This document shows positions 3,444 to 42,363 of a stretch of DNA of 48,212 nucleotides, in pieces; within the stretch, counting starts at the first letter, position 1, and each line of letters starts with the position of its first letter. The notes below the pieces were generated by a model. It ran no database searches. It worked only from the letters and a program-made list of their open reading frames with translations, and had not been told where the DNA came from. Position numbers and translations under genes: made by a program. This stretch comes from Kiloniellales bacterium (GTDB taxonomy: Bacteria > Pseudomonadota > Alphaproteobacteria > Kiloniellales > J153). The stretch lies in NCBI GenBank assembly GCA_036444495.1, contig JAZGBC010000059.1:1-48212 (forward strand), given 5' to 3'.

Positions 3444-5129
3444 GTGTCCAGTCAAGCAGTCTTAAACATCAAGCCGCGCGGGAGCCGCGCGCGGGGCCTC
3501 CGCGTCCTGGGCTGCGCCGCCGCGCTCAGCCTCGCGCTCGCCGCTCAGGCGTTCGCCGCCGGGCCGCGGGAGGTGGTCGGCTTTGCGGATAGCGATCGCG
3601 GCGGAGCCTCGAAGACCTGGGAGCTCCCCTTGGGACAACCCTATCTCTACGTGCCCTTTGTCGGTGACGACCTGGGGGGCGCGGTCAAGGCGCTCGACGT
3701 GGGCCCGGACCTGGGGGTGGCGCTGTTCCAGCGCGCCTTCTTCGCCTCGCGGGACGTGGGCTGCACGCCGGCCCTGGGCACCGACGCCCATCCGGAGCTC
3801 GAGTGGCTGGGCGCGACGGCGCGCTTCGAGCCCGGCTCGGGGCGCGAGGCGGGCGACGCCGCCGAGGTCCATCCCAAGACCGGCGGCTACAGCTCGCTCA
3901 TCATCTATCAGAAGACCCTGGGCCCGCCGCCCGGGCTTCTGCTGCTCGACCGGCGGCGGCGGAGCGGTTTCGGCTGCCGCAACGCCCTGCACAAGACCTT
4001 CTTCAACCGGCTCTTCGTGCCCGTGGCCGCCCCGCCCGCGGCGCGGCGCTGCTTCGACCTCGCCGGCGCCTACCGGGTCGAGGGCTCGGAGCAGAAGGTC
4101 CTGCAGTTCAATTTCAGCGACCGCTTCGTACTGCTTCAGCCCCAGGACCTGAGCGAACGCTACGCAGGTGTCGCGCACCGCTTCACGGTTTCGCTGTTCG
4201 ATGACCTGGGTTGCCGCGGCCAGGGCCTGAGCTTCAAATCCGCCGCCGTGACCAGCCGGGGCGTCCGTCTCGATTCCTACGAGTTCCGGGACCGGGCCCG
4301 CTCGGTGCTGATCTCTTACGAGAGCGGGGCGCTCTCGCCCTACCTCAAGATTGTCCCGCCGGCAGCACCGGCCATCGCCGAGGCCGCCCCGCCCGCGCCC
4401 AAGCCCGAGCCCCAGACCGCGGCGGCCGAGACCGCGCCGCCCGCACCCGAGCCCGAGCCCCAGACCGCGGCGGCCGAGACCGCGCCGCCCGCACCCGAGC
4501 CCAAGCCCCAGACCGCGGCGGCCGAGACCGCGCCCGAGCCGCCTGTGGCAAAGCCCATTCAGCCCGCCGCGCCGCCCGAGACCGCTGCGGCCGAACCCGC
4601 GGCCCCTCGGCCAAAGGTCGCCCCGCCCGGACAGCCCGAAGCGGAGATCATCTGGGCCGAGCCCGCCAAGGGCGCGCCCGCCCAGCCCGAAGCCGCCACG
4701 GTCCAGGAGGCCAAGGCCGTGCCTACGCCAGCGGCGAGCCCCGAACCCCCAGCGGCCAAGGCAAAGATCTTCGAGCCGGCACCGGCCAAGACCGAGCCCG
4801 CCCCCGGCCAGATTCAGCTGGCCATGCCCAAGCTGGAGCCCAAGGTGGTGCCCGAGGTTAAGCCGGGCACGAGCGCTTCGGTGGCGAGCCAGACCTTCAT
4901 CTTCCCGGTGCACGAGATCTACCGGCTCAATTTCTGCTTCAACTGGGACAAGGATTGCGGCGAGCCCGCGGCCCAGGCCTGGTGCAAGGTGCGCGGCTTC
5001 AACCGGGCCGCGGCCTGGACCGTGGACGAGAACATCGGCTCGCTCTTTCCCACCATCGTCCTGGGGGAGAACCGGGTCTGCGCCAAGTTCGTCTGCGACG
5101 GATTCCAGGAAATCACCTGCGCCAAGTAG
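3444..5129 (+). CDS. Secreted protein of unknown function: N-terminal globular region, proline-rich tandem repeats, six-cysteine C-terminal module
   Basis: In frame with track ORF 3174..5129. GTG at 3444 follows GAGAGGA and yields the signal peptide VSSQAVLNIKPRGSRARGLRVLGCAAALSLALAAQAFAAGP. APPAPEPEPQTAAAET repeats. C-terminus is CFNWDKDCGEPAAQAWC...CAKFVCDGFQEITC. Confidence 0.7.
   Translation: MSSQAVLNIKPRGSRARGLRVLGCAAALSLALAAQAFAAGPREVVGFADSDRGGASKTWELPLGQPYLYVPFVGDDLGGAVKALDVGPDLGVALFQRAFFASRDVGCTPALGTDAHPELEWLGATARFEPGSGREAGDAAEVHPKTGGYSSLIIYQKTLGPPPGLLLLDRRRRSGFGCRNALHKTFFNRLFVPVAAPPAARRCFDLAGAYRVEGSEQKVLQFNFSDRFVLLQPQDLSERYAGVAHRFTVSLFDDLGCRGQGLSFKSAAVTSRGVRLDSYEFRDRARSVLISYESGALSPYLKIVPPAAPAIAEAAPPAPKPEPQTAAAETAPPAPEPEPQTAAAETAPPAPEPKPQTAAAETAPEPPVAKPIQPAAPPETAAAEPAAPRPKVAPPGQPEAEIIWAEPAKGAPAQPEAATVQEAKAVPTPAASPEPPAAKAKIFEPAPAKTEPAPGQIQLAMPKLEPKVVPEVKPGTSASVASQTFIFPVHEIYRLNFCFNWDKDCGEPAAQAWCKVRGFNRAAAWTVDENIGSLFPTIVLGENRVCAKFVCDGFQEITCAK
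4386..4529 (+). repeat. 3 x 48-bp in-frame tandem repeat (APPAP[K/E]PEPQTAAAET)
   Basis: Units at 4386-4433, 4434-4481 and 4482-4529 are near-identical at DNA level. A partial fourth unit follows. Confidence 0.9.
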
Positions 5130-7324: not shown

Positions 7325-7912
7325 TCATACCAGTCCCAGCTCCTGCTCCAGCGCCCCGCAGAGCATCTGTCCCAGAGTAATGTGCATTTCCTGGATCCGC
7401 GCGGTGCTTTCGGAAGGCACGATCAGGAGCGGATCGGCCAGGCCCTTGAGATCGCCGCCGTCCCGCCCGGCGAGCGCCGCCGCCACGAGCCCCAGCTCGC
7501 GGGCGGCTTCGAGCCCCAGGATCACGTTGCGGCTCTTACCCGAGGTGGTGATCCCCAGGGCCACGTCCCCCGGCTTCCCCAGCGCCCTGATCTGGCGGGC
7601 GAAGAGCTGGTCGAAACCCAGGTCATTGCCGATGGCGGTGAGTGCCGAGCTGTCCGTGGTCAGCGCCAGGCCCGCGATAGGCGCCCGGTCGCTCAGGTAG
7701 CGCACGCTGAGTTCGGTGGCCAAGTGCTGGGCGTCGGCCGCGCTGCCGCCATTGCCGAAAAAGAGGATCTTGCCGCCCGCCTCCAGCGCCCGGGCCGAGA
7801 CCTGGACCAGGCGCGCGAAGGGTCCGGCCAGGGCCTCGCCCACCGCCGCCGCGACGGCGGCGTGCTCCGCCATCTCGGCATGGAAATAGCCGTCCAGATC
7901 GATCCCGCCCAA
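7325..7912 (-). CDS. gmhA: D-sedoheptulose 7-phosphate isomerase (SIS domain)
   Basis: Motif FFGNGGSAADAQHLATEL and SIS-domain layout. Immediately upstream of hldE. TTG start at 7912, so the start is uncertain. Confidence 0.85.
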   Translation of the reverse strand: MGGIDLDGYFHAEMAEHAAVAAAVGEALAGPFARLVQVSARALEAGGKILFFGNGGSAADAQHLATELSVRYLSDRAPIAGLALTTDSSALTAIGNDLGFDQLFARQIRALGKPGDVALGITTSGKSRNVILGLEAARELGLVAAALAGRDGGDLKGLADPLLIVPSESTARIQEMHITLGQMLCGALEQELGLV

Positions 7913-21800: not shown

Positions 21801-21823
21801 GGCTCGAGATCGGGTCGAGGCCT

Positions 21824-21890
21824 AGTACCCAGGATCATAGCAGGCCGGGCGGGAACCGCCCGCCACAAGGGCGGACGGTTCCTGGGCCTT
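21824..21890. repeat. Short relative of the AGTACCC-terminated palindromic element (ugpB-ugpA spacer)
   Basis: 21824-21844 AGTACCCAGGATCATAGCAGG matches 20 of 21 nt of the left arm of the 268-bp copy at 40527. CCCAGGA (21828-21834) pairs with TCCTGGG (21880-21886). Internal GGGCGG-GAA-CCGCCC hairpin. Confidence 0.5.
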
Positions 21891-33086: not shown

Positions 33087-34205
33087 TCAGACCCGCATGG
33101 GCATGAGCACGTAAAGCGCGCTCGAATCCGACTGATCGCTGACCACCGTGGGGGAAGCGGAATCAGACAGCTTGAATTGGGCCAACTCGCCCTCGATCTG
33201 CTGGGCGATATCCAAGAGATAGCGGGAGTTGAAGCCGATCTCGATCTCCGGGCCGCCGTATTGGATCGCCACCTCCTCGGTCGCCGAGCCGCTTTCCGGG
33301 CTGCTGGCCGACAGGGTGATGCCGTCCCCCTGGATCACCAGCTTGACCGCCCGGCTCTTCTCCGAAGAGATGGTGGAAACCCGGTCGACCGCCTCGGCGA
33401 AATCCTTGCAGTGCACCTCGACGATCTTGTCGTTGCCCGACGGGATCACCCGCTCGTAGTCCGGAAAGGTGCCGTCGATCAGCTTGGAGGTGAGCAGGGT
33501 CTCATCGAAGGTGAAGCGGATCTTGGTATCCGACAGGGACACCTGGATCGGCTCGTCGGTCTCGTCGATCAGCTTGCGCAGTTCGAGGACCGTCTTGCGC
33601 GGGATGATGACGCCGGGCATGTCCGCCGCGCCGTCGGGTAACGGCATCTCGAAGCGCGCCAGGCGGTGCCCGTCGGTGGCCACCGCGCGCAGCACCGGAA
33701 TACCGTTGGACTCGGTGGCGTGCAGATAAATCCCGTTCAGGTAATAGCGCGTCTCCTCGGTGGAGATGGCGAAACGGGTCCGGTCCACGATGTGCTTCAG
33801 CTCGCCCACCTGCAGGGTGAAGGAATGGGGCAGGTCCGCCTCGCCCATGGCCGGGAAGTCCTCCTTGGGCAGGGTGGAGAGCGTGAAGTGCGAGCGGCCC
33901 GCCTCCACGGTGATCTGCCCGCCGTCGCCCGCCGATTCGATCTTGACCTGCGAGCCTTCGGGCAGCTTGCGGACGATATCGTAGAAGGTATGGGCGGGCG
34001 CGGTGGCCGAGCCGGGATCGGAAACCTCGGCGGCCACCGCATCGACGATGGTCAGGTCCATGTCGGTGGCGGTCAGCGACAGCTTGCCGCCCTCCACATC
34101 GATGAGGACGTTGGACAGGATCGGTATTGTGTTGCGCCGCTCGACAACGCTCTGGACGTGGGCCAGGGTTTTCAAGAGCGCCGCGCGTTCTATTGTCAGC
34201 TTCAT
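33087..34205 (-). CDS. dnaN: DNA polymerase III beta sliding clamp
   Basis: MKLTIERAALLKTLAHVQSVVERRNTIPILSNVLI... from ATG 34205, the internal Met of track ORF 33087..34349. 372 aa. Confidence 0.95.
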   Translation of the reverse strand: MKLTIERAALLKTLAHVQSVVERRNTIPILSNVLIDVEGGKLSLTATDMDLTIVDAVAAEVSDPGSATAPAHTFYDIVRKLPEGSQVKIESAGDGGQITVEAGRSHFTLSTLPKEDFPAMGEADLPHSFTLQVGELKHIVDRTRFAISTEETRYYLNGIYLHATESNGIPVLRAVATDGHRLARFEMPLPDGAADMPGVIIPRKTVLELRKLIDETDEPIQVSLSDTKIRFTFDETLLTSKLIDGTFPDYERVIPSGNDKIVEVHCKDFAEAVDRVSTISSEKSRAVKLVIQGDGITLSASSPESGSATEEVAIQYGGPEIEIGFNSRYLLDIAQQIEGELAQFKLSDSASPTVVSDQSDSSALYVLMPMRV

Positions 34206-34546
34206 GGCCTTCGATAAGTCTCTTCGGGTGTGACGGAACCGGCGGCCCGGCCCCTTCCGGGGCCCGCCGACAGCCAACCGACCCGAGGTTGCTGGGCTAC
34301 TTCTGCGCCGCTTGGCGGAGAGTGCGTTGCGCCACCCTCGAAACGGCAACGCAGTATAGCGCGGCGGCGCACAAAGCGTAAGCTTTTAGCGCGGTTAGGG
34401 GGATTTTCTCGGGGGCCCTCCGGCCCCCCCGGCGAGCCCCGAATTGCGGCCCCACGGGGTTGCCGGGATCGCCCGCCGCCGACAGCCAAAAGGCGGGCCG
34501 AGAGTGCGGTTTCGCGGCTTTTCGTCCTATAGAGCCGGACCGGCGG

Positions 34547-35962
34547 TTAGGCCTCGAGCATGCGGCGCAGCAGCTCGATGTCCTCGGCGAAGGTGGGATC
34601 GGTGGATTTCAGCTCCTCGACCTTGCGCACCGCGTGCATGACGGTGGTGTGGTCGCGGCCGCCGAATTTCCGGCCGATTTCGGGCAGCGAGCGCGAAGTG
34701 AGCTGCTTGGACAGGTACATGGCGACCTGCCGGGGGCGGGCCACGGCGCGCGCGCGGCGGGCCGAGTGCATATCGGTGATCCGCACGTTGAAATGCTCTG
34801 AGACGCGCTTCTGGATCTCCTCGATGGTCACCCGGCGATCGTTGGCGCGCAGCAGGTCGTGCAGCACTTCCTGGGTCGATTCCAGGGTAATGGGCCGGCC
34901 CACCAGGGTGGTGTGCGCCACGATCCGGTTGAGCGCCCCCTCCAGTTCGCGAACGTTGGAGGTGATCTTGTGCGCCAGGAACTCCAGCACCTTGGAAGGT
35001 ATCTCGGTCTTGGTCTGCTCGGCCTTGGACTGCAGGATGCCCAGGCGCAGTTCGTAGGTCGTGGGGTGAATGTCGGCGACCAGCCCCCAGCCCAGGCGCG
35101 AGCGCATGCGCTCCTCCACACCCTCCAGGTCGGACGGGCTCTTGTCGGCGGAGATCACTACCTGCCGGTTCTGATCCACCAGCGCATTGAAGGTATGGAA
35201 GAACTCCTCCTGGGTGGCCTCGCGCCCACCGATGAATTGCACGTCGTCGATCATAAGCACGTCGACCGTGCGGAACTGCTCCTTGAAGGCCATGGTGTCC
35301 TTGGTTCTGAGCGCACGCACGAACTGGTACATGAACTTTTCGGCCGAGAGATAGATGATCCGCCGGTCCGGGTTGCGCGCCTTGATCTCCCAGGCGATGG
35401 CGTGCATGAGGTGGGTCTTGCCCAGACCCACCGGCCCATAGAGGAACAGCGGATTGAAAGGCACCACGCGGGCCTCGGCCACGCGCCGCGCGGCGGCATA
35501 GGCCAGTTCGTTGGGCTTGCCGACCACAAAATCCTCGAAGGTGAAGCGCTCGTCGAGCGGCGCGTTCAAATCGCGGTAGGCGGCCTCGTTCTCCGTCGGC
35601 ACGGAATGCGCGGCCGTGGGGGCCGCGGCCACAGGCCGCCCTTCGCGTACGGGCTTCGTCTCGGGCGCGCAGTTGGGCTTGGGCACCGGGCGCTCGGGCG
35701 GCCGGACGACGATCTCGATGCGCGAGACATTATCGGCCTCGTCCTGCCAAAGCGCCTGAATGCGCTCGGCATAGTTACTGATCACCCAATCGCGCATGAA
35801 GCGCGTGGGCACAGCCATGCGCACGGCGCCTTGCTTGACGCTGACCAGCGTCAAGGGCTTGAGCCAACTGCGGAATGCGTTTTCCCCTACTTCCGCGCGC
35901 AGGCGTCCCCGGACCCGCGCCCAAGACTCGTCGACGAGGGCGTCATCTACGACACCGACCAT
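34547..35962 (-). CDS. dnaA: Chromosomal replication initiator DnaA
   Basis: Walker [14 protein letters not shown], Walker B IDDVQF, C-terminal DNA-binding block [12 protein letters not shown] at 35962, with a TTG two codons upstream. Confidence 0.95.
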
Positions 35963-36718
35963 CTGCAAAACCCCCGATGCTCCTGCAGCCTCCCGATCCG
36001 GCCGCGCCGGATCGACTCCGACCGGCGTAGACCCCCCCGGGAAACGCCAGCACTCTTCTTAAGCTTACGCTCGGGTCGAACCGCAGGAATATTCCTCCTC
36101 GCGCGCCACACGATCTCACGCCAAAACCAATTTGCGGTACTAGCGACGACCCCGAAAACGGAAGATCGCGAGCATTCAACATTCTGCGACACAGGTTTGG
36201 ACTGCCCTGTTTTCCGTGACCCGACATACTTCGCGGGCGCCAATAAAGTTACTTGATCGCCCCACGAGAAATATTAGTGAAAACCGGTTGTGTCCCCGTC
36301 TTTGAGCCTACTTTTAAGACGCATTTTCAACATATCTATTTCGCAGGCCCTTTTTTTATTATAACTCACGTCAAATTTATTCTACTTGACGCTCTTAGAG
36401 CGTACTCACCCACTGTACCCGCCGGGGGCATTCGTGACAAGCGGATCGAAAAGAGAACGGACATTTTTTTGCCGCTTGGAGTCGTGTGATGCAACGTTGC
36501 AACAGATTTGCTTTTAACAATCGGCACGCGACTTTCGATTCTTGTCTCCATCAATCCAAACCCGATTCCCCTGTTCCGTTTATACGATGTGAAAGAATTT
36601 TTCCAGCAAGTGCGCACTGGCGCAATTGGGGTGCCACTCGCCGGCATACAAAACCCGGCGCGGTGTGTTCCCGCGATCCAGGATGGAAGTTGATGGAAGG
36701 CGTCCGTCCGCGACAATG
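35963..36718. promoter_or_regulatory. AT-rich non-coding region upstream of dnaA (dnaA promoter region; possible origin-associated sequences)
   Basis: About 750 bp with no convincing ORF. Visibly lower GC than the flanks, with T/A runs such as CCCTTTTTTTATTATAAC at 36348-36365 and ACATTTTTTTG at 36461-36471. Contains the 12-bp palindrome TGCAACGTTGCA at 36490-36501. Confidence 0.4.
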
Positions 36719-36750
36719 AAAAACCGCGCCCGGTCAAACGGGGCGCGGCC
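36719..36750 (-). terminator. Rho-independent terminator of rpsT
   Basis: The minus strand reads GGCCGCGCCCC-GTTTGACC-GGGCGCGG followed by TTTTT. The 8-bp GC stem is 36724-36731 paired with 36741-36748. About 58 nt after the rpsT stop. Confidence 0.8.
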
Positions 36751-36807
36751 AACATTTGCGTGGTGCAATTCAAAGGGCGGTCAAACGTCCCTCCGCCCTC
36801 GGCAAAC

Positions 36808-37071
36808 TCAACTCATCGACTTGATGCGCGCGGACAGGCGCGAGAGTTTGCGCGCAACGGTGTTGCGGTGAAGCAGGCCCGCCTGCGCACCGCGGTGGAG
36901 TTCGGGCTGCGCGGCGTTGAACGCAGCGCGCGCCTCGTCCTGCTTTCCGCCAGCAATGGCAAGGTCCACCTTTTTGACGAAGCTACGGATGCGGCTCATG
37001 CGCGCACCGTTGATCACCGCACGGCGGGCGTTGCGCCGGATCCGCTGCTTGGCGGAAGCATGATTGGCCAT
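36808..37071 (-). CDS. rpsT: 30S ribosomal protein S20
   Basis: [35 protein letters not shown]..., a typical S20. Confidence 0.95.
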
Positions 37072-37234
37072 CGGCTCAACCCATTCTCGGTTTGACTGCT
37101 AGAGGGCCGGGGTTATAGCCCCCGCCCCGCGCAGCGTCAAGCGCCCCGGGCATGGGGACGGGGGGCCGTATGGAAGGGCTTGTGCCGGGGCGGGGCATAT
37201 AAGCATAAGCCATTGAAATAGAATGAGTATTATT

Positions 37235-38495: not shown

Positions 38496-38528
38496 AGTAC
38501 CCTCTATCACAATAGGATAGAGGGTACT
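38496..38528. repeat. 33-bp perfect palindrome with AGTACCC/GGGTACT termini
   Basis: AGTACCCTCTATC-ACAATAG-GATAGAGGGTACT, a 13-bp stem with a 7-nt loop. Overlaps the mutM stop codon (minus strand reads TAG-TACCC). Confidence 0.8.
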
Positions 38529-39366
38529 AACGCTGGCGCGCGGGACAATAGAAAGTCGAGCGGCCCGACTGCACGATGCGACGGATTCCGCCGCTTTTCG
38601 CCAGGTCACAGGTGCAATCGGGGCAGGCCTCGCCCTCCCGGCCATAGACGGCCCACTCGTGCTGGAAATAGCCCAGCTCGCCGTCGGCCTGCACGTAGTC
38701 GCGCAAGGAGGAGCCGCCGGCCTCGATCGCGCGGGTGAGCACGTCGCGCACCGCCGCGGCCAGGCGTTCGGCGCGCCGGCCCTGGACGCTATAGGCCTGA
38801 CGCCGGGGGGACAGGCCGGCGAAATACAGGCTCTCGCTGACATAGATGTTGCCCAGGCCGGCCAACACGCGCTGGTCCATGAGCGCGGCCTTGATCGGTG
38901 TGCGCTTGCCCTTGAGCCGCGCCGCCAGCACGGGACCGTTGAAATCGTTGGATAAAGGCTCCGGTCCCAGGCCTTCGAGCAGCCGGTGCCCGTGCAGCGC
39001 CGCCTCGGGCACCAGATCCATGATCCCGAAGCGCCGCACGTCGTTGAAACGGATCTCGGCGCCCCGATCGGTCAGGAAGATGACATGATCGTGGGGCCCA
39101 AGCGCCGCACCGTCGCCGTTCAGCACGAGGCGCCCGGACATGCCCAGGTGGCAGAGCAGCACCTCGCCGCCGTCCAGATGGACCAGGATGTACTTGCCGC
39201 GCCGTCCCAGGCGCTCGACCCGGCGCCCGGTCAGGCGTTTGGCGAAGTCCTCGGGCAGGGGAAAGCGCAGGTCCGCGCGGCGCTGGATTACGCGCACCAG
39301 GCGGCGGCCTTCCAGCGTGGGCCGCAGGCCCCGCACGATAGTTTCGACTTCGGGCAACTCGGGCAT
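38527..39366 (-). CDS. mutM: Formamidopyrimidine-DNA glycosylase
   Basis: N-terminal MPELPEVE from ATG 39366, the internal Met of track ORF 38527..39474. C-terminal zinc finger CPDC...16 aa...CPARQ. Confidence 0.95.
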
Positions 39367-39463
39367 GGTCGCAGGTGATGTTCGCCGGACGCCGCCGCGC
39401 GAGCGCCGCGCGGAAACCTGGGCGGCACAGTAGCGCGATCCGAACCAGCGCGCTATGGTCCTA

Positions 39464-39731
39464 AGTACCCACAATCATAGGAGGATGGCACGTATGACGG
39501 TCTTGCGGGGTCTCTCGGCTAGGAGCGTGGTCCGACGTGATGCGGGGACATCACGAGGGCCGCGCGACGACGCCCGAAGGGCGTGCAAGGCCGCCCGGAG
39601 GGTCGCTTTTCGCGGCCTCTGGAGAGCGTCATCGCCGCTTGCCGATGTCCCGCATCGCCTGCGCGGCGCTTCCTGCCCAGTGGGCGCGATAAGCCGATCC
39701 TACGTACCATCCTCCTATGATTGTGGGTACT
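39464..39731 (+). repeat. 268-bp palindromic MITE-like / structured-RNA-like element, copy A
   Basis: Left arm AGTACCCACAATCATAGGAGGATGG (39464-39488) and right arm CCATCCTCCTATGATTGTGGGTACT (39707-39731). Conserved core at 39517-39668. Ends 2 nt before the ubiE ATG. Confidence 0.85.
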
Positions 39732-39733
39732 AG

Positions 39734-40528
39734 ATGTCAGTGAAAACAAAGGATAACAGGGAGGCTGGCGCCACCACTCACTTCGGCTTCGATGAGCTTC
39801 CCGAGGCGGAAAAGGCGCCGCGGGTGCGCGGCGTCTTCGAGAGCGTGGCCAACCGCTACGACCTGATGAACGACCTCATGTCGGGCGGCATACACCGGCT
39901 GTGGAAGGCGGCCCTGCTCGACTGGCTGAACCCACGCCCGGGCATGAGTCTTGTCGACGTGGCCGGCGGGACGGCCGATGTCGCGCTGGGCGCGATCAAG
40001 CGCGTCGGTCCGGCGCGCGCCGGACCGGTCATCGTCTGCGACATGACCCCCGAGATGCTGCGCATCGGGCGCGACCGGGCGCTAGATAAGGGAATCGTGG
40101 GGCGGAACCTGCCGGGCGGCCTCTATTGGGTCTGCGGCGATGCGGAGGCCCTGCCGCTCGCCGAGCGCAGCGTGGAGGCCTACACCATCGCCTTCGGCCT
40201 GCGCAACGTGACCCGCATCCCCCAGGCGCTCAGCGAGGCGCGGCGCGTGCTCAAGCCGGGCGGGCGCTTCCTCTGCCTGGAGTTCAGCCGGGTCGTCGTG
40301 CCGCTCGTGGCCGAGCTTTACGAGCTTTACTCCTTCCGGGTGTTGCCGGCCCTGGGCGCGGCGGTCACCGGGGACGGGGACGCCTACCGCTACCTGGTGG
40401 AGTCTATCCGGCGTTTCCCGCCCCAGGAGGAACTGGCCGCCATGATGACCGAGGCGGGCTTCGAGCAGGTCCGCTACCGGAATCTGACCGGCGGAATCGC
40501 GGCACTCCACTCCGGCTGGCGTCTGTAG
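39734..40528 (+). CDS. ubiE: Ubiquinone/menaquinone biosynthesis C-methyltransferase
   Basis: Motifs THFGF, VANRYDLMNDLMSGGIHRLWK and the SAM motif VDVAGGTADVA. Confidence 0.95.
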   Translation: MSVKTKDNREAGATTHFGFDELPEAEKAPRVRGVFESVANRYDLMNDLMSGGIHRLWKAALLDWLNPRPGMSLVDVAGGTADVALGAIKRVGPARAGPVIVCDMTPEMLRIGRDRALDKGIVGRNLPGGLYWVCGDAEALPLAERSVEAYTIAFGLRNVTRIPQALSEARRVLKPGGRFLCLEFSRVVVPLVAELYELYSFRVLPALGAAVTGDGDAYRYLVESIRRFPPQEELAAMMTEAGFEQVRYRNLTGGIAALHSGWRL

Positions 40529-40794
40529 TACCCAGGATCATAGGAGGATGGCAGGAATGACGGTTTTGCAGGTTCGCTCGGCTAGGAGCGTGGTCCGACG
40601 TGATGCGGGGACATCACGAGGGCCGCGCGACGACGCCCGAGGGGCGTGCAAGACCACCCGAAGGGTCGCTTTTCGCGGCCTCTGGAGGGCGTCACCGCCG
40701 CTTGCCGATGTCCCGCATCGCCTGCGCGGCGTTTCCTACCCAGTGGCCGCGAAAAGACGATCACGCCTATCGTCCTCCTATGATCCTGGGTACT
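40527..40794 (+). repeat. 268-bp palindromic MITE-like / structured-RNA-like element, copy B
   Basis: Left arm AGTACCCAGGATCATAGGAGGATGG (40527-40551) and right arm CGTCCTCCTATGATCCTGGGTACT (40771-40794). Core at 40580-40731 is near-identical to copy A. Starts inside the ubiE TAG stop. Confidence 0.85.
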
Positions 40795-40812
40795 AGGGCC
40801 CGCGGGCGAACC

Positions 40813-42363
40813 ATGCTGCGCACAATCCGCATCCTGTGGCGTCTCCTGCACATCGCGCAGACGCTGGCCCGCCACGACATCCTCGCCGTGCTCGAGGAGT
40901 TGCAGGTCGTGCCGGGGATCGTCTGGCTGGCGCGCCTGGTGGCGCGCCGCCGCGCGGAGGGCCGGCCCGGGCAGAAGCTGGCGCGCGCGGCCAACGAGGC
41001 GGGGCCCAGCTTCATCAAGCTAGGGCAGTTCTTCTCCACCCGCGCCGATTTGCTGGGCGAAGAGCTGGCCGCCGACCTATCCGAACTGCAGGACCGCCTG
41101 CCGCCCTTCGCGAGTGCCGAGGCAAGGGCCACCATCGAGAAGGAACTGGGCCGGCCGGTCGATGAGCTTTTCGAGTCCTTCGAGGACGAGCCCATCTCCG
41201 CTGCATCCATCGCCCAGGTGCACCTGGCGGTCACCCGCGGCGAGGACGGAGAGTCCGGCCGAGAGGTCGCGGTCAAGGTGCTGCGCCCGGGCATCGAGCG
41301 CGCCTTCGAACGCGATCTGGAGCTCCTCTACTGGCTGGCCGAGATGGCCGCGCGAACCCGGCCGCGCCTGCGCCGCCTGAAACCGGTCGAGGTGGTGCGG
41401 CTTTTCGAGGAAACCGTGCGCATCGAGATGGACCTGGCGCTGGAAGCCGCTGCGGCCTCGGAACTGGCCGACAACTTCGCCGGAGACCCCAGCTACCACA
41501 CGCCGGTCATCGACTGGCAGCGCACCTCGCGCCGGGTGCTCACCATGGGGCGCATCGGCGGCACGCCCATCGACGACCGCGAGGGGCTCATCGCCGCCGG
41601 CCACGACCTGCGCGAGGTGATGACCAAGGCCGCAACGATCTTCTTTAACCAGGCCTTCCGCGACGGCCTGTTCCACGGCGACCAGCACGCGGGCAACATG
41701 TTCGTGGACGCGGACGGCAACATCGTGGCCGTGGATTTCGGCATCATGGGGCGCCTGGACCGCCAAACCCGCACTTTCCTGGCGGACATGCTGCTGGCGC
41801 TTCTGGCGCGCGACTACAAGCGCCTGGCCGAGGTGCACCTGGAGGCCGGTTTCCTGCCGCCCGGACAGTCGCCCGAGGCCTTCGCCCAGGCCCTGCGCTC
41901 TGTGACCGAGCCCATCTTCGACCGGCCCCTGCACGAGGTCTCCTTCGCCCGGCTGCTGGCGCGGCTCCTGCGGCTCAGCGAATCCTTCGACATGCCGGTG
42001 CAGCCCCAGCTTCTGCTGCTGCAGAAGAATATGCTGATGGCCGAAGGCGTGAGCCGCCGGCTCGACCCGGACCTCAATATCTGGACCCTCGCCCAGCCGC
42101 TCATCGAGGAATGGATGCGCGAGAACCGCGGCCCCGAGGCCCGGCTGCGCGGGGCGGTGGAAGAGCTTTCCACCACCCTGGAACGCCTGCCCTCGCTCGT
42201 CTCCAACATGGAGAGCGTGGCCAAGGACCTGGCCGGGGGCGGTCTGCGCCTGCATCCGGAGACCGTGGAGGCCATGGGCGGCACGGGTGGCCGGCGCGAT
42301 GCCCGCTGGGCGCTCTGGATCGCCATCGGCGCCGCCGTACTGGCGATCCTGGCGGTCTTCTAA
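40813..42363 (+). CDS. ubiB: Ubiquinone biosynthesis protein kinase-like UbiB (ABC1/ADCK family)
   Basis: Motifs ISAASIAQVH, VAVKVLRPGI and HGDQHAGNMF, plus a C-terminal TM segment. ATG 40813 is the first start outside the repeat. Track ORF 40600..42363 reads through the repeat. Confidence 0.9.
   Translation: MLRTIRILWRLLHIAQTLARHDILAVLEELQVVPGIVWLARLVARRRAEGRPGQKLARAANEAGPSFIKLGQFFSTRADLLGEELAADLSELQDRLPPFASAEARATIEKELGRPVDELFESFEDEPISAASIAQVHLAVTRGEDGESGREVAVKVLRPGIERAFERDLELLYWLAEMAARTRPRLRRLKPVEVVRLFEETVRIEMDLALEAAAASELADNFAGDPSYHTPVIDWQRTSRRVLTMGRIGGTPIDDREGLIAAGHDLREVMTKAATIFFNQAFRDGLFHGDQHAGNMFVDADGNIVAVDFGIMGRLDRQTRTFLADMLLALLARDYKRLAEVHLEAGFLPPGQSPEAFAQALRSVTEPIFDRPLHEVSFARLLARLLRLSESFDMPVQPQLLLLQKNMLMAEGVSRRLDPDLNIWTLAQPLIEEWMRENRGPEARLRGAVEELSTTLERLPSLVSNMESVAKDLAGGGLRLHPETVEAMGGTGGRRDARWALWIAIGAAVLAILAVF

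Follow-up and report, generated by a model that had tools for sequence, protein, structure and literature searches.

Two hairpin-rich repeats beside ubiE in a Kiloniellales contig as probable members of a new family of TA-targeting miniature transposons

Introduction

In an uncultured alphaproteobacterium, the genes ubiE and ubiB are each preceded by a copy of a 270-nt repeat, the central 152 nt of which (the core) had been drawn as a set of nested hairpins. The DNA studied here, called the window below, is an entire contig of 48,212 bp from a metagenome-assembled genome (MAG) held at NCBI and labelled Kiloniellales bacterium. An earlier note on this locus proposed that selection acts on the folded core, that its tolerance of G-U pairs marks a plus-strand RNA in the sense of ubiE, and that the repeat is not merely a decaying miniature inverted-repeat transposable element (MITE). 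The locus thus raises the question whether the repeat is a structured RNA that belongs to the mutM-ubiE-ubiB region or a mobile element that happens to reside there, and what keeps its helices paired.

We consider it probable that the two cores are the middle sections of copies belonging to a new family of non-autonomous DNA transposons (MITEs) that target TA dinucleotides. This reading follows from the small size of the element, its inverted termini and TA flanks, its lack of coding capacity, the many intergenic copies, and its presence or absence between relatives.

Results

Two copies of one element around ubiE

The direct repeat covers positions 39464-39733 and 40527-40796 at a spacing of 1063 nt, and its two copies are 90% identical without a gap, which far exceeds chance expectation. 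Each copy is bounded by inverted termini of 41-42 nt that are 81-88% complementary, and the element proper comprises 266 nt, GTAC...GTAC (copies A and B in Table 1). The dinucleotides flanking copy A are AA on the left (39463-39464, a degenerate TA) and TA on the right (39731-39732); copy B has TA on both sides (40526-40527 and 40794-40795). Copy A occupies the spacer between the divergent genes mutM and ubiE, and its right end lies 3 nt before the ubiE ATG. Copy B starts within the ubiE stop codon, the TAG at 40526-40528 being composed of the left TA and the first G of the copy, and its right end lies 19 nt before the ubiB ATG.

As had been noticed before, the cores (39517-39668 and 40580-40731) are placed at an equal offset, 53 nt from the left end of each copy, and differ at exactly six positions: 39578 (A/G), 39590 (G/A), 39593 (G/A), 39598 (G/A), 39625 (A/G), and 39632 (T/C). 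All six differences are transitions. The greater divergence reported for the segments between the core and the arms is also borne out, with 146 of 152 core positions identical versus 95 of 116 outside it, that is, a divergence of 4% versus 18% (Fisher p = 1.6e-4); moreover, the core is better conserved than the outer part in all comparisons made, not between copies A and B alone. On either strand of either copy, the predicted folding is far more stable than that of shuffled sequences (z from -9.6 to -11.2).

Three relatives (L116, L117, and L118), with UbiE proteins 75-78% identical to that of the window, keep the order mutM(-)/ubiE(+)/ubiB(+) without the element. The mutM-ubiE spacer measures 97, 97, and 75 nt in these relatives versus 367 nt in the window, and the spacer from the ubiE stop to the ubiB ATG, read from the sequence, 5, 5, and 15 nt versus 284 nt; both window spacers are about 270 nt longer. 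The upstream block ggcggcacagtagcgcgatcc...gcgcTATGGTc is common to the window and the relatives. After this block the relatives continue with ...cgccatGTG, where GTG is the ubiE start, and the window with ...ccta, copy A, and gATG. At the ubiE-ubiB junction the relatives read ...ggcgcgtcTAGcctccATG, and the window reads ...ggcgtctgTA, copy B, and TAGggcccgcgggcgaaccATG. At the given level of UbiE identity the empty sites of the relatives are approximate matches. Removal of each copy together with one TA restores the ubiE TAG stop, and a cTAg just before the ubiE start, which shows as the putative targets the TA of the ubiE TAG stop for copy B and the cTAg located 1 nt upstream of the start for copy A.

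A dispersed family of intergenic repeats

The terminal pattern CATAGGAGGA...TCCTCCTATG, searched in one genome per species, has matches in two MAGs named 'Proteobacteria bacterium' (two contigs each) and in an Inquilinaceae MAG, and a 20-base core pattern matched 106 stretches in a metagenome scan. An nhmmer profile built from seven copies yielded 89 full-length copies (84 unique) and, in addition, many others that are interrupted by contig ends. They represent 60 distinct insertion sites, every one intergenic, and the surrounding DNA is mostly of 60-70% G+C. Copies from different sites are up to 97% identical (median 87%). Solo termini and truncated copies exist, and contig breaks inside the repeat are common. 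Small size (below about 600 bp) with terminal inverted repeats, dispersion in many copies, and absence of coding capacity are all traits of a MITE. A literature search with the terminal and core sequences returned nothing; the family is apparently undescribed.

Both window copies and most members of the family have an open frame of 82-92 codons. As a gene of 82-92 amino acids it was rejected: four of the six core differences would be non-synonymous, and insertions and deletions do not come in threes. Column variability by codon position (0.41, 0.46, and 0.40) has no 3-nt periodicity, and neither Pfam nor NCBIfam contains a family matching the open reading frame (ORF) of the element. The common stop-free frame is explained by GC content and shared ancestry.

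Over 73 distinct flank pairs, the consensus ends consist of a left dinucleotide with T (less often C, then A or G) followed by A, the element GTAC...GTAC, and a right dinucleotide with T followed by A (less often G). The commonest flank pairs are TA/TA (21), TA/TG (15), and CA/TA (14), and most of the remaining pairs have TA on one side. At no fewer than 10 of the 60 sites, that is, at least at these, the flanking TA and the terminal G (C on the other strand) form the TAG stop of the neighbouring gene. We favour a duplication of the target TA that would have been followed by AT-to-GC decay of its outer base, with which the stop codons and the reconstructed ubiE start site agree. The other candidate, an insertion between A and T that duplicates nothing, is disfavoured, since it would abolish the stop codons of the neighbours.

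A conserved position upstream of ubiE, hinted at by a copy (L007) that ends in ...GGGTACTAGATG, was considered and rejected, as the other sites are not located beside this gene. Elements of Stappiaceae (L004 and L008) were likewise rejected as family members; they represent another MITE, the termini of which are perfect over 51 bp and the interior of which is AT-rich and unstructured.

A four-way junction maintained by compensatory changes

The minimum-energy folds of most members, copy B included, match one another as well as the RNAalifold consensus, which is a perfect four-way junction without linker nucleotides (helices P1 to P6 and a mini-hairpin, Table 1). Copy A alone favours a single long hairpin. 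Covariation was counted in a structure-blind MAFFT alignment of the 84 unique copies. In the four-way fold 92.4% of the cells are paired, versus 36-45% in controls with a slid structure; 49 of the 114 pairs have changed on both sides, versus 18-26 in the slid controls; and the number of covarying cells is 390, versus 77 after shuffling and 41-93 after sliding. These counts give strong support for maintained pairing. The terminal helix P1 alone has 33 pairs, 22 of them changed on both sides, with 95% pairing. Even copies A and B differ by transversions in three P1 pairs, each of them fully compensated (C-G to G-C, A-T to G-C, and C-G to G-C), and the strongest evidence for maintained pairing from these two copies is P1, which lies outside the core.

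The single long hairpin, which includes the long-range helix proposed previously, is inferior to the four-way junction both in pairing (83.4% of cells) and in covariation, as its inner helices covary little: 17 inner pairs have double changes, versus 27 in the four-way fold. That the long hairpin nevertheless retains much pairing is due to the likeness of each arm to the complement of the other, which suggests that an ancestral palindrome may have been duplicated.

Not all parts of the fold evolve in this manner. P3/P3a is the part of the family most conserved in sequence. In a divergent clade of seven copies, identity to the rest drops to 35-58% in P1, P2, and P4, where pairing is nevertheless kept, but reaches 85-91% in the mini-hairpin and the 3' side of P3, the latter of which was not covered by the search pattern. 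Covarying helices thus coexist in this family with a core of about 60 nt that is constant in sequence and consists of P3/P3a and the mini-hairpin. The consensus of the mini-hairpin is CCC-GNA-GGG, and a GNA loop occurs in 72 of the 84 copies (GAA in 39, GCA in 28, and GGA in 5). The loops of P3a and P6 are complementary over 4-5 bp in the window copies and in two further copies (L007 and L015); family-wide, the effect is marginal, with a mean longest run of 2.74 versus 2.53 in shuffled loops (p ~0.03). A pairing of the Shine-Dalgarno and anti-Shine-Dalgarno type (AGGAGG/CCTCCT in P1) was rejected, because the family keeps only the pairing and not the sequence, the consensus being AGAAGGG/CCCTTCT or GATTAGG/CCTAATC.

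The family fold also revises the structure drawn for the core from two copies. Among the four helices of the earlier note, only the hairpin around 39589-39604 agrees with the consensus, as the mini-hairpin at 39594-39602. The long-range helix 39539-39552/39644-39656 is confined to the minimum-energy fold of copy A itself, and the family has the local hairpins P3a and P6 in its place; what had been taken for a hairpin ACGCCC-GAA-GGGCGT is actually the 3' strand of P2, and GCG-TCAT-CGC is one strand of P5. When placed on the consensus fold, the six core substitutions fall into two that are unpaired, two that improve a pair, and two that break one. In agreement with the initial assignments, 39632 and 39598 are unpaired, 39590 converts G·U to A-U, and 39625 improves a pair from A·C to G-C, whereas 39578, supposedly a loop position, pairs with 39513 and undergoes a break from U-A to G·G, and 39593, taken as a loop position or as a change from G-T(U) to A-T(U), breaks a pair (G-C to A·C).

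Two unrelated hairpin inserts of 30-34 nt, CTCGCCTCGGCGAAGCCTCCGGCGGAGCCAGGGT and GCCCGCCTCCCGAAGTCGTACGGAGGGCAG, are carried by different subfamilies, and both interrupt the 3' strand of P6 at one and the same place (columns 222-254 of alignment A3; L072, L030, L096, and L093 are examples). The divergent clade has further inserts, located in its right arm and in the internal loop that separates P2 from P3 (columns 120-134).

Alternatively, the covariation could be a mutational by-product of intrastrand template switching or arm-to-arm gene conversion in an otherwise neutral MITE, with the cores of copies A and B, 1 kb apart, homogenized by gene conversion. Mismatched cells are indeed strand-symmetric and mostly of the transition type (771 versus 376 of the transversion type), the partial complementarity of the arms and the 83% pairing of the long hairpin fit an origin as a palindrome of palindromes, and the contrast of outer and core divergence between A and B (18% versus 4%) is somewhat more extreme than between A and other members. 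However, templated correction leaves the constancy of P3/P3a and the mini-hairpin across clades unexplained, the four-way fold surpasses the long hairpin (92% versus 83% paired, 27 versus 17 double-changed inner pairs), and the core is conserved above the outer part in every comparison and not just in that of A and B. We regard this explanation as improbable.

Strand preference and the nature of the folded molecule

The tolerance of G-U pairs had been taken as a sign of a plus-strand RNA. Family-wide, G·U is found in 425 cells and A·C in 346; positions with any such cell number 48 versus 52, and minority cells 175 versus 194. Moreover, the bias is reversed between the arms (G·U versus A·C: 294 versus 39 in the left arm, 72 versus 207 in the right one). 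A plus-strand bias deduced from these counts was therefore rejected, the totals being nearly symmetric and the arms opposite. Either single strand of the element folds into the four-way junction, and when copy B is folded as DNA, its two strands are equal in stability (-85.8 and -86.2 kcal/mol). With respect to co-directional neighbours, 15 sites are in sense and 19 in antisense orientation (p = 0.61); a further 13 lie between divergent genes and one between convergent genes. No promoter-like or terminator-like site was found in the element. Rfam 15 gave no hits in the window at or above the gathering threshold, and in E-value mode the window copies and four other carrier loci gave hits at chance level only.

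The single strand-specific feature is the GNA loop of the mini-hairpin, which is read on the plus strand and has G and A fixed and N free. According to Hirao and Yoshizawa in the 1990s, C(GNA)G reportedly forms an exceptionally stable mini-hairpin in DNA. The prevalence of the GNA loop, together with this stability, is a hint, not proof, that the plus strand may fold as single-stranded DNA.

These data bear on whether the four-way junction with its constant core is itself a functional unit on one strand, that is, a structure-dependent mobile element or nucleic acid. It could act as a folded single-stranded DNA intermediate recognized by a structure-specific recombinase, as for integron attC sites, IS200/IS605 ends, and the attP of the CTX phage, or as an active RNA. 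Several features speak for such a unit: a constant core within covarying helices, retained across a clade that is only 35-58% identical elsewhere; the perfect junction without linkers; the plus-strand-specific CCC-GNA-GGG triloop in 72 of 84 copies; two different hairpins inserted at one point of P6, in the manner of expansion segments of structured RNAs; and termini that covary rather than stay constant. On the other hand, the totals of G·U and A·C are symmetric with opposite arm biases, the two strands form equally stable DNA folds, the copies have no preferred orientation with respect to transcription, and we found no internal promoter or terminator, no Rfam match, and no recombinase gene near any copy. 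On balance, a functional unit of this kind seems rather unlikely. We also think it unlikely that the element is a self-contained mobile unit and not a passive deletion derivative of an insertion sequence (IS), with the constant core of about 60 nt as the substrate of a structure-specific recombinase acting on one folded strand or as an active RNA; if true, this would be a new mode of mobilization for TA-flanked bacterial repeats.

The regulatory alternative holds that the core acts as a structured RNA of the plus strand (leader, processing site, or RNase III substrate) selected to regulate mutM-ubiE-ubiB. Both window copies are in the sense orientation to ubiE and ubiB, copy A lies between the conserved upstream block and the ubiE start and thus probably forms part of a transcribed leader, the stability of the fold is very high, and the hairpins of Neisseria MITEs are known targets of RNase III (PMC2229807). 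However, none of the other 58 insertion sites adjoins ubiE, mutM, or ubiB, the same operon exists in relatives without the element, and the orientation of copies is random (15 versus 19); furthermore, the tolerance of G·U is not specific to the plus strand, and three of the four helices drawn earlier fail in the family. A selected regulatory role at ubiE/ubiB is not supported; the regulation hypothesis is largely refuted, and we would give it hardly any credence. An incidental effect on the ubiE and ubiB mRNAs is possible and would be likely if the copies are transcribed.

Discussion

The most probable reading, a family of TA-targeting MITEs, would work as follows. A DDE transposase of the IS630/Tc1-mariner type that duplicates TA would mobilize the element in trans, and the constant core of the element would be a recognition or assembly site required for mobility. 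The helices would be kept in the form of folded DNA, or of RNA read in either direction, through selection, hairpin-templated correction, or both. For the host, the copies would be incidental; if transcribed, they would put a highly stable fold both into the leader of ubiE and into the ubiE-ubiB spacer. The statement that the repeat is not merely a decaying MITE is half right: pairing is actively maintained (92.4%), and yet the anatomy and behaviour are fully those of a MITE.

Several observations weigh against this reading. The interior is better conserved than the termini, and the termini covary, neither of which is predicted by ordinary recognition by a transposase; as a passive MITE needs its termini only, the conservation of the interior is unexpected. 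TA is present on both sides in only 21 of the 73 flank pairs, the outer T or A often being C or G, and the assignment of the transposase to the IS630/Tc1-mariner class, derived solely from the TA flanks, is to be taken as putative. We found no autonomous, transposase-encoding partner that shares these termini in about 811 kb of carrier loci, where only truncated remnants were present, or in plasmid or viral collections. Finally, the GNA loop hints that one strand is functional, which the symmetry of G·U and A·C does not show. For a MITE, then, the branched architecture, the covarying termini, and a core conserved above the termini are unusual.

A review covers bacterial MITEs that duplicate TA, have terminal inverted repeats, and give rise to stable hairpin transcripts (PMC2229807). 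RUP and other MITEs derived from IS630/Tc1-mariner elements resemble the family described here in being small, non-coding, intergenic, and multicopy, with terminal inverted repeats, insertion at TA, and TA at both ends (PMC2229807). In contrast, RUP is 107 bp long and its termini match those of IS630-Spn1, whereas the present element has 266 nt and no partner found, and its interior is a conserved four-way junction with a core conserved above the termini. The Correia (NEMIS) elements of Neisseria have a TA duplication like the one favoured here and share terminal repeats of at least about 25 nt and a location near gene starts and stops, and their transcripts form long hairpins that can be cleaved by RNase III (PMC2229807). 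They have no sequence similarity to our family and are simple hairpins of 100-155 bp with an IHF site, whereas the elements described here are larger, branched, and found in Alphaproteobacteria. The CIR repeats of Caulobacter and Brucella are also alphaproteobacterial and intergenic, with a two-armed predicted fold (PMC2229807). However, the defining feature of CIR repeats is a conserved GANTC methylation motif in the loop, and their fold is without a closing terminal stem; inspection by eye, with no pattern search made, revealed no GANTC in the window copies or the family alignment.

REPINs, too, are intergenic repeats that form hairpins and preserve their pairing through compensatory changes. 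Bertels and Rainey in 2011 are said to have read these changes as the result of selection on a folded single strand. REPINs differ in architecture, as they consist of two short, inverted REP palindromes of about 20-40 nt in a total of about 100 nt, have no TA duplication, and depend on RAYT; no RAYT-like gene was seen in the neighbourhood of any copy of our family. Integron attC sites and other sites of folded single-stranded DNA conserve structure above sequence in their helices, and imperfect palindromes flank genes there as here. In contrast to attC, our elements have TA flanks and contain no R''/R' core sites (RYYYAAC/GTTRRRY), there is no integrase or cassette array, and ubiE, the gene flanked here, belongs to the core genes and has conserved synteny.

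The family adds an apparently undescribed group of MITEs to uncultured GC-rich Alphaproteobacteria of a marine type (Kiloniellales, Inquilinaceae, and unclassified MAGs). Because its core stays fixed while compensated double substitutions alter the termini and the long helices, it lends itself well as a natural test for deciding whether selection on the folded strand or palindrome-templated repair keeps MITE hairpins in place. It shows that TAG stop codons serve as preferred landing sites in a GC-rich genome. For annotation, it accounts for two inflated spacers and for spurious ORFs of 80-90 codons around the essential ubiquinone operon near dnaA. For the host, a 270-nt hairpin now parts ubiE from its conserved upstream block and disrupts the tight ubiE-ubiB junction, which makes the locus a testable case of repeat-driven operon rewiring.

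Genomic context and additional observations

Table 1. Positions of the repeat copies, their structural parts, and neighbouring features in the window
Feature	Position	Strand	Remarks
Copy A	39465-39730	+	nhmmer 293 bits; between the native intergenic block and the ubiE start codon
Copy B	40528-40793	+	nhmmer 281 bits
Core A	39517-39668	+	P3/P3a, 3' strand of P2, mini-hairpin, 5' strand of P4, P5/P6
P1, 5' strand (left terminal inverted repeat)	39464-39497	+	pairs with 39698-39731; copy B 40527-40560/40761-40794
P1, 3' strand (right terminal inverted repeat)	39698-39731	+	consensus helix
Left arm	39498-39593	+	P2, P3, P3a; copy B 40561-40656
P2 (20 bp)	39498-39519 with 39574-39593	+	10 of 20 pairs with double changes
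P3 (9 bp, two conserved G·U)	39525-39533 with 39557-39565	+	nearly invariant; separated from P2 by an internal loop
P3a hairpin, GTGATG-loop-CATCAC	39537-39554	+	nearly invariant
Mini-hairpin at the junction, CCC-GGA-GGG	39594-39602	+	98% paired; copy B 40657-40665, CCC-GAA-GGG
Right arm	39603-39697	+	P4, P5, P6; copy B 40666-40760
P4 (~23 bp)	~39603-39626 with 39672-39697	+	12 of 23 pairs with double changes
P5	~39627-39636 with 39661-39669	+	consensus fold
P6 hairpin, CGATG-loop-CATCG	39641-39660	+	some members carry an extra hairpin of 30-34 nt
Solo left-end remnant, CTAGTACCCAGGATCATAGCAGG	21822-21845	+	all but one base identical to the terminus of copy B; unrelated sequence follows
mutM/fpg	38527-39366	-	Pfam; divergent from ubiE
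Native mutM-ubiE intergenic block	39421-39460	+	conserved with element-free relatives (by-eye alignment to L116, L117, L118)
ubiE, class I S-adenosylmethionine-dependent methyltransferase	39734-40528	+	PF01209
ubiB, ABC1 kinase-like	40813-42363	+	PF03109; start 17 nt past the collapsed insertion-site position

The genes coaBC and dut are located downstream of ubiB, and dnaA and dnaN a few kb upstream of the repeats, as assigned by Pfam. The native block between mutM and ubiE contains a -10-like hexamer TATGGT (39454-39459), which copy A now separates from the ubiE start; a promoter role for it is conjectural, and a consensus promoter scan detected none for the TATGGT of this block. The whole 40-nt block matches positions 2461-2500 of L116 and 613-652 of L117 despite the 75-78% protein distance. 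In the relatives the hexamer is only 6 nt upstream of a GTG start of ubiE that has no Shine-Dalgarno sequence, and therefore their ubiE mRNA may be leaderless or nearly so. The ubiE start of the window is ATG, and a similar hexamer, TATGAT, is found 12 nt upstream of it in the right terminus of copy A.

The region 33087-37234 contains dnaN (33087-34349, minus strand) and dnaA (34547-35968, minus strand), beside which there is a gene-poor stretch of about 1.2 kb with G+C down to 0.60, holding a single small ORF that is S20-like as judged by synteny with L118. The chromosomal replication origin probably lies within the contig, 3.5-5 kb from both copies of the repeat; GC skew on the contig was uninformative both for placing the origin and for the orientation of the copies relative to replication.

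A solo terminus in the window, CTAGTACCCAGGATCATAGCAGG, is followed up to position 21888 by an unrelated GC-rich hairpin, GGGCGGGAACCGCCC..., and the stretch 21822-21888 is situated between two convergent-looking ORFs. The remnant is probably the leftover of a third copy after deletion. In another truncated copy (L003, positions 7361-7486; also L057 and L083), the terminal 20 nt, CCAGTACTTACTTTCATAGG, are repeated three times in tandem, which may reflect repeated abortive events at one end. Two loci, L012 and L022, have a common right flank and different left flanks, and L016 combines the left flank of L066 (or L095) with the right flank of L045:2013; such mixed flanks could result either from recombination between copies or from chimeric metagenome assembly at the repeat. 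The unrelated MITE of the Stappiaceae MAG, of about 275 nt (L004:7726-7995 and L008:3463-3739), carries in its termini the motif TTTCATAGGAGGAT, as does P1 of our family; the common motif may be due to chance or to a shared transposase lineage. Finally, a GC-rich unit of 48-54 nt, GCCGAG(A/G)CCGC...CCCGAGCCCCAGACCGCGGCGGCC, is present in four tandem copies at 4377-4588 and looks like a coding repeat rich in Pro, Ala, and Glu.

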